A stretch of 51,921 nucleotides of DNA, taken from positions 1 to 51,921 of the forward strand of contig MQRK01207495.1 in the NCBI GenBank assembly GCA_001938485.1. Direction: 5' to 3'. This document shows positions 43,518 through 51,921 of this stretch, piece by piece; the stretch's first letter is position 1; each line of letters begins with the position of its first letter. This DNA comes from Girardia tigrina. Lineage: Eukaryota. Below the pieces are notes generated by a model, which saw only the letters and a program-made list of their open reading frames with translations, searched no databases and had not been told where the DNA came from. Both the position numbers and the translations under genes were made by a program.

Positions 43518-45126
43518 TAATACAAAAACAAAAACTTTATGTTATTTTTAAAAGATTGAGTTTTTTATTAAAAATCGTAACAATAAATATTATGTAAATA
43601 TCGAAAATGAGAGAAACATAAAAAATAAAATTGCTTGAAACAATGAATGAATTGTATAAAAGATTTTTCGATGAAAGAATATTTAGACTATTTGATTTAA
43701 AATTTTTATTTCCCTGTCTGAAATCTATTTTATTTTTATTATTTTGGTTTTAATTTTCTGTTTATTTCCTTATTTACCTTTTGATAAATTATATAACTTA
43801 TCAACATTCCAATTCAAACTAATTAATGTTTGTTTTAAACTAATTTATTTCAGTTTGAATTATATTTAAATATAAAATATTCTAATGGATTTCAACACAA
43901 TATAACAAGAAGGTTTTAATTGTAACACATTTTTATTTTCATAAATGTGGATGTTATTCAATGATTCGCAATACGACCACTCATAATATATGTACCAAGT
44001 TCTTTGAATGAATTATGTTCTTTTCTAACAAGATCTACTGAGACCTTGAGCTTTATTTATGGACACGGCAGTTAACTCCTACATCCTCAACTAAACGAAA
44101 TCTTACACTGCATGGCGTGAAAGAGATGCAAATACGTGCGTCTCAGTACCTTCCTAGAAAGACGAAAGCTCACTTTGGCTCCAGAAGTCTTAACGCATAC
44201 ACATATAGTTGGGAATGTACTGGGCCCGATTATGCTGATATACGTATATTTATAATTAATGTATCAACTTTAACTTTTACATTCAAACCAGAAAAATAAA
44301 TATTTTTTCTTCTATATATGGCTTATGGAATTGGCATATTAGCTCCAATTAAGTTTTATAACTCTACGAAAGGTGCTGTTGCACTTTTGATCAAATATTC
44401 CATAATGTGTCGTGCAACAGAAAAACCAAACGATTGACATTTTTCTACTTTTACGGCTTTTTAAATATGTTCAGAGTCAATTCTTTTGTCATCCACTTCT
44501 ACAATAATAGTCATAATAATAAAAGACTACAGACAAGATGAACATTTATCAAAAGAAGCCAAAAAGGATACAGTCTTGATTATGACGTCACTACGAAACG
44601 CCAAATTTGAGTCGCTGTCCTAAAAGGAAACATTTTTGCTATTTTAGGCGATACATTTCTTGATGTACTTACAAACCATGAAAATTAAACCATGCAATTA
44701 AGTAACTTCTGCTGTTATAAAAAAACTTGTGGCTAGATTTATCTGCACTAGAGGTTTCAATTGCCAAGATCTCGGATCCCGAGGAATGGAAAAATGAGGT
44801 CGGGATCCCGGGAGAAGTATAGAAATTACTCGGATATATCAGACCCTCCAAAAATAGCGTTTTTCGCCACTTTTTCGAAGTTATATAAAAATCAATATTT
44901 TTATTAATAAAATAGCTATTTTTTCGATAAAATCTGTAAAAATCGATATTTTTATCGATAAAACACTAATAAAAATCAAAATTTTATATTATTTATATCA
45001 AAAATGAGAGCTCGAAGAAAAAAAAGTGGATACCAAAAAGCCATACCGTAGTATGGCTTGGTTTAGTAAACGTATAGAAATCAAAATTGAGATATTTTTT
45101 AAAAATCATTTTATTTTAAAGAAAAA

Positions 45127-45702
45127 ATGAATAAAAAAAATTCACTTGATATTGTTAATGCGAAAAGAATGGAGGATTTCAATTTTGAATTGCTTAAAGA
45201 ATATTCTCGCGCAAGGATAATAAATAATGAATATACAACAAACGAAAATATGATAGAGGAATATAAAAAATATAAAAACTTAGGTCTCAACCATAAAGAC
45301 GCTTGTAAGAAAATTGGAAGCAGTGAGTATAAATTCGCGAGAATGTTAAAAGATATGGGGATTCCATCTTTGAATCGTCATAGTGTTCCATCTGCTTCTT
45401 CGAAAAAAGGAAAGAAAACAATAACAAAAGCAGATGAAATACTTCCAACGAAGAAATCCAATAAGAAAATAAATATTGGAAAAGAAAAAGAAGAAAAACT
45501 TATAGCGGAAATAGATGAAAAATTGGATTTGAAATCATGTAAGCGAAAAGTAAATAGGAAATCAGTTGAAATTGGAAAAGGAAAAGAAGTACCAAGAGAT
45601 GAAGAATCGGAATACGAGACTGAAACTAAAAACTCTATTAATAAAGATATGTGTGCAATATTCGGAAAAAATTTTAAACCGGAAAATGTTGAAATATCGT
45701 AA
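45127..45702 (+). CDS. Hypothetical Lys/Glu-rich viral protein with possible helix-turn-helix
   Basis: 191-aa open frame; GLNHKDACKKIGSSEYKFARMLKDMG resembles an HTH. Confidence 0.6.
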   Translation: MNKKNSLDIVNAKRMEDFNFELLKEYSRARIINNEYTTNENMIEEYKKYKNLGLNHKDACKKIGSSEYKFARMLKDMGIPSLNRHSVPSASSKKGKKTITKADEILPTKKSNKKINIGKEKEEKLIAEIDEKLDLKSCKRKVNRKSVEIGKGKEVPRDEESEYETETKNSINKDMCAIFGKNFKPENVEIS

Positions 45703-45707
45703 TAAAA

Positions 45708-45869
45708 ATGGATTTGATGACAACGGAAACTCTAATGGAAGACATGGTAAAAAATATAGGTCTAATGCAAACTTATTATCTAAACCAGATTGGATTTTAT
45801 AAGAAATTAGTGTTTATCCTGATTATGGTTTTTATCTGTGTTATAGTAATAGTTATTTTATCCAAATGA
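45708..45869 (+). CDS. 53-aa single-pass membrane protein (not in ORF track)
   Basis: MDLMTTETLMEDMVKNIGLMQTYYLNQIGFYKKLVFILIMVFICVIVIVILSK*. Starts 5 bp after the previous stop, aaaaATG context. Confidence 0.55.
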   Translation: MDLMTTETLMEDMVKNIGLMQTYYLNQIGFYKKLVFILIMVFICVIVIVILSK

Positions 45870-45955
45870 AAAAATGANNNNNNNNNNNNNNNNNNNNNNN
45901 NNNNNNNNNNNNNNNNNNNNNNNNNNNNNNNNNNNNNNNNNNNNNNNAAAATATT

Positions 45956-50134: not shown

Positions 50135-50149
50135 TTTCATAACTTAAAA

Positions 50150-51496
50150 ATGGAAACAAGCTTCAAAAAACCAGTAAGTCAATTAACCTCGGGAGTAGTT
50201 CCCTTGGGAATTTTAGATCTCGATAACAATAAGGAATTTTCTCACGTTTTGAAAAAATCCGATGTAATAAAACTGGTGCCAACATCCGGATCAATGGCAT
50301 ATTTGAATAGCAATGGAACTATAGTTTTTCAATTATCACAAACCACTGATCCGATAGATATTTGTAATGCAAAACTGGTTTATGATATCACAATCACAGA
50401 ATGTGATACCGTTTTGGAGACTAATTTCTTCCCGAAATTATTTACGTGTATGTCATTAAAATTAGGTAACTATGTTGTTGAATCGATAAATAATCCTGGA
50501 GTTGTTTCGGATATGTTATTATATGTTTCGAAAGATAGAAACTATTTACCCTGTGGAGAAATAACCGATTTTATCCCTGATCACAATGAAATGGTATATG
50601 GAGAAAAAATAGATGCTGCCGCTGGTCCGCCAGCAGTAGCTGCAGTTCCAGCCGGTTTGCGANNNNNNNNNNNNNNNNNNNNNNNNNNNNNNNNNNNNNN
50701 NNNNNNNNNNNNNNNNNNNNNNNNTTTCTCGCTGAAACATCTCTTTGGATTTTTGCAAAATTATAACCGAGTTATTTATAATATTCTTCTGGAATTCTCA
50801 TTGGTTCGAAAAATGGATAATCCAAATATTTTTTTCGCGAAAAATGGGACCAAAGGAACTATTACAATAAATTCCCTGGAACTGCACATGAATCAACTGG
50901 AGTTGAATATTGATTATTATGCCCGATTGGTGGATCGGTTGAATCTGAAAGATAAACCGATTTATGTGGATTTTCTCCAGCGAATCTCAGTGGAATACGA
51001 TTTGACAGCCCAAAAGGTTTTCTCATGGAATGCGGCATATCTGAATTATTTACCACGATATATTTTCGTCGGAATGAAAACTGATAATTCGGGATATAAT
51101 AAAAATAATTCCCTGTTCAAAATGGATCCCAAAGAATTCTCGATTCAATTAAAATTAAATAATACCTATTACCCAATCCAGCCAATGGTGAATAATACAG
51201 AAAATCGGAATTTTTATGAATTATATAATAGTTATGTGCAATGCTGCCGCGGATTCCAAGACAAGGCCCCAATGCTATCGCTGGAAGACTGGAAATCTTT
51301 TTACCCAATTGTCTGTTTCGATACCTCGGATATCGATAAAACTTTGGATGTCAACAATGTCACCGTTACACTGCTGATTCGAAAATCTGAAACGTTTATT
51401 CAAAAAATGTATTGCGTAATTCTCCAGGAAGCCAAGGTGAAAATGTCAATTCGCGGATCGCAAATCACGATAATCGAACCATTCAAAGGAAAGTGA
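50150..51496 (+). CDS. Double-jelly-roll major capsid protein (hexon-like)
   Basis: 448 aa, beta-rich; LKHLFGF, PRYIFVGMK, IQLKLNNTYYP, ELYNSY and YPIVCFDTS motifs typical of Polinton capsid proteins; adjacent to integrase and ATPase. Confidence 0.85.
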   Translation: METSFKKPVSQLTSGVVPLGILDLDNNKEFSHVLKKSDVIKLVPTSGSMAYLNSNGTIVFQLSQTTDPIDICNAKLVYDITITECDTVLETNFFPKLFTCMSLKLGNYVVESINNPGVVSDMLLYVSKDRNYLPCGEITDFIPDHNEMVYGEKIDAAAGPPAVAAVPAGLRXXXXXXXXXXXXXXXXXXXXXFSLKHLFGFLQNYNRVIYNILLEFSLVRKMDNPNIFFAKNGTKGTITINSLELHMNQLELNIDYYARLVDRLNLKDKPIYVDFLQRISVEYDLTAQKVFSWNAAYLNYLPRYIFVGMKTDNSGYNKNNSLFKMDPKEFSIQLKLNNTYYPIQPMVNNTENRNFYELYNSYVQCCRGFQDKAPMLSLEDWKSFYPIVCFDTSDIDKTLDVNNVTVTLLIRKSETFIQKMYCVILQEAKVKMSIRGSQITIIEPFKGK

Positions 51497-51522
51497 AAAT
51501 AAAATAAAATAATTGTCAAAAA

Positions 51523-51921
51523 ATGACGGACTCGTTAAAAATACGAAAATTGATAGATACTCAAACTCCCGGTTTAATTCGAGTGAATGGAAAGGAAATG
51601 TATTTGAATCGGGAAATGTTGAAAAAGATTAAAAAATTGGAACAGAAAGGAGGAATGATCGGGGATAAATACCATTCTGGTGGTTTATTGCCACTGGCAG
51701 CTTTACTGCCATTAATTTTTGCCGGAGTCACGGCTGCGGGAGCTACAGCGGCATCGATATCAAAAACTGTTTCAAATGCTCGTGAAGCTCAGAAGAATCA
51801 GGCTGAAACCGAGAAAATAAGACAAGAAACTGCAAATATTACTCCCAAAGCAGCAACCACACCAACGGGATCAGGATTGAAAGGAAAAAAAGGAAAAAAA
51901 GGTGGAATAATACCATTATTG
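51523..51921 (+). CDS. Virion core/membrane-active-like protein, truncated by window end
   Basis: 133 open codons: ...QKGGMI..HSGGLLPLAALLPLIFAGVTAAGATAASISK...TGSGLKGKKGKKGGIIPLL. Confidence 0.75.
   Translation, partial: MTDSLKIRKLIDTQTPGLIRVNGKEMYLNREMLKKIKKLEQKGGMIGDKYHSGGLLPLAALLPLIFAGVTAAGATAASISKTVSNAREAQKNQAETEKIRQETANITPKAATTPTGSGLKGKKGKKGGIIPLL

Follow-up and report, generated by a model that had tools for sequence, protein, structure and literature searches.

A single-frame phospholipase A2-integrase gene in an endogenous Polinton of Girardia tigrina and a putative -1 frameshift between PLA2 and integrase in related elements

How the integrase of a Polinton reaches the incoming genome is an open question, and no Polinton virion has been observed so far (10.64898/2026.06.19.733378). 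Contig MQRK01207495.1 of Girardia tigrina (assembly GCA_001938485.1, positions 1 to 51,921 of the forward strand; the whole stretch of 51,921 nucleotides (nt) is called the window below) carries at its right end a Polinton in which phospholipase A2 (PLA2) continues in the same reading frame into the integrase. This right-hand part almost certainly represents 7 kb from the left side of a single damaged copy of an endogenous Polinton that is repeated many times, apparently an Alpha-like adintovirus. By itself the element is unremarkable, a damaged representative of a known kind from a lineage sampled before; what appears to be new is the overlap of PLA2 and integrase in the -1 frame in 15 related loci, accompanied by putative frameshift signals. 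We consider it likely that a broad group of Polintons couples its integrase to a virion phospholipase in the manner of gag-pol, through either a -1 slip or an in-frame polyprotein, with release by a protease in the particle. The explanation as a whole, comprising the element, its fused gene, polyprotein processing and a frameshift in relatives, is in our judgement very probable.

The PLA2-integrase gene of the window

The PLA2-integrase gene was located by Pfam and alignment at 48755..50134 on the forward strand, its exact start being uncertain. The PLA2 part matched PF08398 (E 2.5e-10) and retained the His-Asp pair, the integrase part matched the rve family PF00665 (E 2.8e-9) and retained the D-D-E triad, and a GG linker was recognised by its motif at about 49190 on the same strand. 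PLA2 and integrase form a single frame when the TAA codon at 49277 is read as X. The fused query found 414 proteins, and a PLA2 match was present as well in 61 of the 120 listed and in 53 of the top 60. Alignment of 26 rows (the window and 25 homologs) revealed that the D-D-E columns were invariant, the integrase of the window copy being interrupted by the stop, and of 60 fused homologs 59 showed a loose pattern, hydrophobic-GG or GxG, in the linker. The C-terminus of the integrase gave no Chromo match, a chromodomain at this place being an adintovirus criterion (Buck et al. 2024), and its end coincides with that of most fused homologs. A degenerate DNA pattern of the integrase head matched only an unrelated phage gene.

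The original prediction had labelled the PLA2 as PLA2X. The PLA2X-bearing alpha adintoviruses (Starrett et al. 2021, PMC8502044) share with the window a parvovirus-like PLA2 within the virion module, an rve integrase, an FtsK ATPase and a double-jelly-roll (DJR) hexon, but their PLA2X is a stand-alone protein with a C-terminal pX. In the window the integrase continues the PLA2 in frame where a C-terminal pX would stand, and a pX-like gene is found separately from 51523 onward; the PLA2X identity was therefore rejected.

The TAA codon noticed earlier does exist, and sequence, contigs and homolog alignment place it at 49277..49279 on the forward strand, 15 residues into the conserved integrase head and 8 codons before the first catalytic Asp. 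Downstream of the stop this Asp is found at residue 8 and the first Met only at residue 112; since that Met follows the catalytic Asp, the integrase cannot be made by ordinary translation from this copy. Contigs of four runs (X1, X3, X4 and X5) from four studies, out of 24 runs listed overall, were aligned on positions 43001-51921 of the window; the summed contig depth used here is not a copy number, that X5 is RNA is a guess only, and the RNA runs with small shares in that list are no evidence of expression. At the stop codon the entire depth of X1 (25 contigs), X3 (1) and X4 (26) disagreed with the window, and the column of this codon held a residue in 25 of 25 aligned homologs. As other copies read this codon differently and homologs have a residue here, the TAA represents damage to the window copy, and perhaps to a few more, in a fused gene. 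A programmed read-through stop that rations the integrase would likewise separate PLA2 from most of the integrase by an in-frame TAA, and at the stop 136 of 269 of the X5 depth differs and about half agrees with the window, a point that weighs against plain damage. Read-through is nevertheless highly improbable and was rejected as largely refuted, considering the depth of the other three runs, the residues of the homologs, and the position of the stop inside the conserved head and not at the linker.

Contigs of all four runs omit about 40 nt at 48769-48811, and the start of the fused gene thus varies between copies. A slip at the heptamer at 49243 of the window was not proposed, there being no stem and the frame being open already.

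The PLA2/integrase junction in related elements

The PLA2/integrase junction of the window was compared with that of related loci. The PLA2 alignment was too variable for scanning; a first set of 86 loci was fetched with the fusion alignment, and a second set of 82 further loci with an integrase alignment, three repeats of earlier contigs being excluded. In the first set 57 loci had no PLA2 in the available DNA, 4 had PLA2 elsewhere, 10 were fused (one of them broken) and 15 carried PLA2 directly upstream in another frame, which was at -1 in 12 and not in 3. In the second set 67 loci lacked PLA2 and 6 lacked an integrase match, PLA2 lay elsewhere in 4, one locus was fused, and PLA2 and integrase were adjacent at -1 in 3 and at +1 in 1. 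The integrase thus overlapped PLA2 in the -1 frame in 15 of the 19 adjacent split loci, and the first-set integrase tree, a quick tree, indicated at least five changes of the -1 state.

Analysis of the 15 -1 loci revealed that PLA2 ends shortly after an LGLG motif, that no Met is present ahead of the first catalytic Asp in 14 of them, and that the integrase frame is unbroken for 300+ codons in 13. A strict slippery heptamer, in register in the overlap, was found in 12 of the 15, against about 1.9 expected, the loci being related; by set the counts were 9 of 12, where the rates of the individual integrases predict 1.45, and 3 of 3, where 0.49 would be expected. Six loci carried the heptamer A_AAA_AAC and, 5-7 nt on, a stem with a folding energy between -14 and -26 kcal/mol (z between -2.9 and -5.4). 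These candidate frameshift cassettes, all between PLA2 and integrase, represent three unrelated stem sequences: one in L008 (736-783), L013 (6489-6533) and L130 (2091-2138), the second in L009 (6101-6182) and L019 (1004-1085), and the third in L039 (1964-1995). In the 12-bp stem of the first group 36 of 36 cells were paired, and the changes observed were two-sided in 2 cases and one-sided in 3; the pair count comes from three sequences only and was reached in 232 of 500 shuffles.

The in-register heptamers, the integrases lacking a Met and the stems suggest a programmed frameshift like that of gag-pol. In the gag-pol of retroviruses and long terminal repeat elements the structural protein is encoded in frame 0 and the integrase in the -1 frame, an X_XXY_YYZ heptamer is followed by a spacer of 5-7 nt and a stem, and a protease motif lies at the joint. 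The likeness concerns the split relatives only, the window lineage having a hard fusion, and unlike gag-pol the system belongs to a double-stranded DNA virus with a phospholipase upstream and the integrase alone downstream. Judged from these sequence signals, a -1 programmed ribosomal frameshift is likely to link PLA2 and integrase in the relatives, and this is more probable still for the six loci with a stem.

Several observations weigh against this reading in addition to the shuffled pair counts. The second-set query, A6, was built mostly from -1 loci, and the relatedness of the loci makes the P values of the heptamers too small. Four of the 19 split loci (L022, L024, L084 and L115) are not at -1; the first three are damaged or ambiguous, while L115 (2974-3026) has a +1 PLA2/integrase junction containing an A7 run, its neighbours being intact in other respects, and may represent either an indel or another kind of slip. 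Three of the 15 -1 loci (L002, L003 and L015) are without a strict heptamer, L002 looking lesioned, and 6 of the 12 folded loci are without a strong stem in a folding that left pseudoknots aside. The integrase of L003 has a Met of its own, 10 nt ahead of the PLA2 stop, and some published integrases of the stem-less clade also begin with their own Met (PMC11071296). For the explanation of the window element itself, a weak point is that its integrase forms a long, unplaced branch in the integrase tree.

Two other explanations bear on these exceptions. The split junctions might be A-run indels in dead copies, or assembly errors, in a gene that is truly fused: A-runs are mutable, three +1 cases (L022, L024 and L115) fall within the stem-less clade, L002 has the look of a lesion and many loci are endogenous fossils. 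As a general explanation this is improbable in view of the preponderance of -1 among the split loci, the break always just after LGLG, the long open integrase frames, and the strong, canonically spaced stems of six loci belonging to three groups, but it may still apply to part of the stem-less clade. It is a little less probable that the integrase of the split relatives is produced by splicing, re-initiation or a non-AUG start, as the nuclear life of these DNA viruses, the Met of L003 and the published same-clade integrases with their own Met would allow; the in-register heptamers and the stems 5-7 nt downstream would then be left unexplained. A -1 frameshift is thus preferred for the relatives; in the stem-less clade, A-run indels or separate initiation may be at work instead.

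No PLA2/integrase frameshift was found in the literature searched, GenBank feature tables, Repbase and subscription journals being outside its scope, and 59 PLA2 headers in the searched part of file 2 of the PMC11071296 supplement contained no frameshifted PLA2/integrase isoform. The PLA2 entries of that supplement, which already records the in-frame fusion as a label, include PLA2X-Adenain and in-frame PLA2-Integrase (PMC11071296). In the available parts of the same paper, -1 slips are proposed by Buck et al. for penton and hexon-adenain only, and the supplement annotates the Adinto13074 integrase from a Met past the catalytic Asp (PMC11071296). If the frameshift is true, annotations that begin the integrase past the first catalytic residue, such as that of Adinto13074, would need correcting.

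In the window lineage, where a single frame is observed, PLA2 and integrase would be made as one polyprotein, which may be packaged by means of its PLA2/core part. Within the particle this polyprotein would probably be cleaved at the GG linker by an adenain-type protease of the element, giving a PLA2 that breaches a membrane at entry and an integrase carried along with the genome. A -1 slip just after LGLG would, in other lineages, yield much PLA2 and little PLA2-integrase, as in retroviral gag-pol, and the integrase missing from the window copy would be supplied by other copies. Parvoviral PLA2 is thought to disrupt membranes during entry (PMC8502044), and the mavirus protease cuts between GG and X and between GX and G, its integrase being present in virions (PMC6048507). 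The mavirus virophage thus resembles the arrangement proposed here in carrying an rve integrase in virions and GG-type protease sites, but its integrase is a separate gene product, its host is a protist and it needs a giant virus (PMC6048507). The coupling of PLA2 and integrase with a protease motif, kept across many lineages either by fusion or by a frameshift, would be indirect evidence for packaging of the integrase and for spread by particles.

Two further observations were made on these loci. L003 (1-15597) represents a Polinton-like genome of 15.6 kb in its complete form, with perfect terminal inverted repeats (TIRs) of 123 bp, a 1320-aa polymerase-like open reading frame (ORF) and a gene with an F5/8 type C domain. 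Contigs L115-L157 carry Polinton-type integrases in many bacterial and archaeal metagenome-assembled genomes of the genome collection, and are probably mis-binned eukaryotic virus DNA.

Identity, extent and copies of the element

From 45.1 kb to the end of the window eight ORFs are closely packed, four of which were named by Pfam. An ATPase, PLA2, rve integrase, DJR capsid and pX/core-like ORF were found, in agreement with the original prediction of an endogenous Polinton/adintovirus with a morphogenesis module. The 448-aa capsid (50150..51496, forward strand) was supported by Pfam, homologs, predicted fold, structure matches and a tree. It matched PF21738 (DJR-like, E 5.7e-14), and structure prediction with 101 homologs as input, which had been named beforehand as the test of the assignment, gave a double jelly roll with a predicted local distance difference test score (pLDDT) of 87.2 and a predicted template modelling score (pTM) of 0.86. 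The best solved matches of the model were the capsids of PBCV-1, iridovirus, mavirus and Sputnik (E 2e-12 to 5e-11), and models of adintovirus, adomavirus and MELD-virus capsids were matched in BFVD, which confirmed the fold and did not separate Alpha from Beta.

The capsid tree, 47 rows chosen by the author, showed that the window groups with P0001-3 and P0125 (100/99) on the side of the PLA2-bearing loci, and that this side is split at 100/99 from capsids of the ELDLF type; no named reference is included in the tree. The ELDLF type is presumably a mark of Beta, and likeness suggests that the element is Alpha-like. A viral contig collection searched with capsid queries gave no loci.

The packaging ATPase of the A32/FtsK type (47748..48647, forward strand), identified by Pfam and homolog alignment, matched Pox_A32 (E 8.8e-8), so that this Polinton hallmark is present; it contains the Walker A sequence GESGCGKN. 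The GKN had been suspected to be a lesion, and a frameshift had been suspected at the start of the gene. Neither suspicion was retained, since GCGKN is common to 8 of 8 closest ATPase homologs covering the motif (P0274-79, P0281 and P0282) and is thus a lineage feature, more distant ATPases having mostly GKT, and since the Met at 47748 lines up with the homolog starts, so that no frameshift is needed. An indel at 47732, upstream of this Met, was seen in one contig per run in two runs.

The nearest known systems are the Dugesia endogenous adintoviruses uAdinto11140, 15034 and 20531 (Buck et al. 2024, PMC11071296), which were compared by eye and not aligned. They share with the window the GCGKN Walker A, a PLA2 fused to an integrase without chromodomain, a similar hexon, a pX-like gene with the same head, accessory genes of helix-turn-helix (HTH)-like and coiled-coil type and an SK-type repeat. 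The gene order differs, being hexon, PLA2-integrase, ATPase, pX in Dugesia and ATPase, PLA2-integrase, hexon, pX in the window, and the Dugesia records include PolB, adenain and penton, which for the window element would lie beyond the window end. Adintovirus nemertoderma6405 (class AA) and sediment15303 (class AB) are likewise annotated with a 'PLA2-integrase' and a separate pX-like 'Macc' gene, as in the window, the fusion being a label that the available main-text passages do not discuss (PMC11071296); by eye, the window capsid resembles the hexon of the AA-class Adinto6405 (PMC11071296). The predicted divergence of the lineage thus holds for its sequence, the capsid being 34-41% identical to its best three matches, and not for the lineage itself, which has already been sampled in Dugesia (PMC11071296).

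The original prediction expected pPolB, protease and penton to the right; that these and the right TIR are not seen for the window family, the window stopping at 51921 inside a gene, counts against the explanation preferred here. The family might be a polymerase-less derivative relying on a full-size relative, as no pPolB occurs within the 7 kb seen and Group 2 Maverick-Polintons often swap their replication gene (10.64898/2026.06.19.733378). This is unlikely: the window breaks off within a gene, PolB, adenain and penton are all present in the closest published relative (PMC11071296), and fused loci bear pPolB (L001) or a protease (L011 and L016).

The left edge had been placed at 44750. From bin 44491-44788 to bin 44789-45086 the contig depth rose from 0 to 74 in X3 and from 0 to 442 in X4, and in X1 it was 342-564 across 43597-44788 and 60,288 in 44789-45086; owing to this step the shared sequence seems to begin at or after 44789, and the former edge was abandoned. 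The left terminal non-coding region is accordingly given as 44789..45126, its edge being placed by the depth step only within a 298-nt bin, and a candidate element end AGT, the terminal motif of such elements described in PMC8097293, lies at 44816. No listed contig was shown to bridge the left junction. In X1, 10,366 distinct contigs aligned on 43001-51921, and their likeness to the window spread over 82-100%: 2161 at 99% or more, 3286 at 95-99%, 3395 at 90-95% and 1524 below 90%. Both the jump in depth and the abundance of variant contigs are consistent with a highly repeated family that starts at 44789 or later, and the spread of likeness with an expansion over some time and not in a single fresh burst. 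The description of the lineage as young was thus correct only in part, given this spread of copies and the stop of the window copy itself.

In a draft assembly with many gaps, the assembler might have attached a free virus or a contaminant to host DNA, and the sequence is found in biofilm and further environmental runs as well. We regard this as very unlikely, as no N gap separates the host-like flank from the element and the thousands of variant contigs fit many aged genomic copies. Inside the element, four N gaps (45878-45947, 47300-47349, 48365-48548 and 50663-50724) are the reason why ORF B, ORF C, the ATPase and the capsid, respectively, are not readable in full.

Accessory genes and flanking sequences

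The pX-like gene (51523..51921, forward strand) encodes a basic/hydrophobic core protein with several GG motifs and is truncated by the window end. It was assigned by a weak score, its nearest clusters having some Adeno_PX members, and by its likeness, by eye, to the pX tail of published PLA2X proteins and to adintovirus 'Macc' genes. ORF A (45127..45702, forward strand, from the ORF call) is a basic accessory gene of 191 aa without a Pfam match, for which the protein-cluster search gave only a weak HTH-like lead (scores <=0.84). ORF B (45878..46390, forward strand) and ORF C (47018..47653, reverse strand) are coiled-coil-like in the ORF calls. The start of the former is concealed by the N gap in the gap list, and the latter contains an exact 94-nt duplication (repeat D12) either side of a 50-N gap, probably an assembly artefact. 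A (CCAAAT)n hexamer array, repeat family D5, lies between them at 46921..47018.

The left flank of the element is AT-rich and loaded with mariner and Penelope sequences, and the earlier description of decayed transposable elements upstream was borne out by damaged fragments of mariner, Penelope and MULE type. Just left of the depth step, 44749-44815 is GC-rich with two GGATCCC palindromic motifs, and could be either a diverged TIR tip or the terminus of a different small element. Further left, 43001-43600 is a second, moderately repeated sequence with raised depth in X1 and X5, and 22088-24496 is a GC-richer, broken transposase-like region, two tested pieces of which had no Pfam match. A MULE transposase fragment was found at 19878-20393, and decayed mariner transposase copies at 70-1174, 8082-8680 and 32411-33378. 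A Penelope-like retroelement with a GIY-YIG domain and 236-nt inverted repeats occupies 15271-17136, and a second Penelope-like fragment at 38861-39301, 23.6 kb away, is 96% identical to it.

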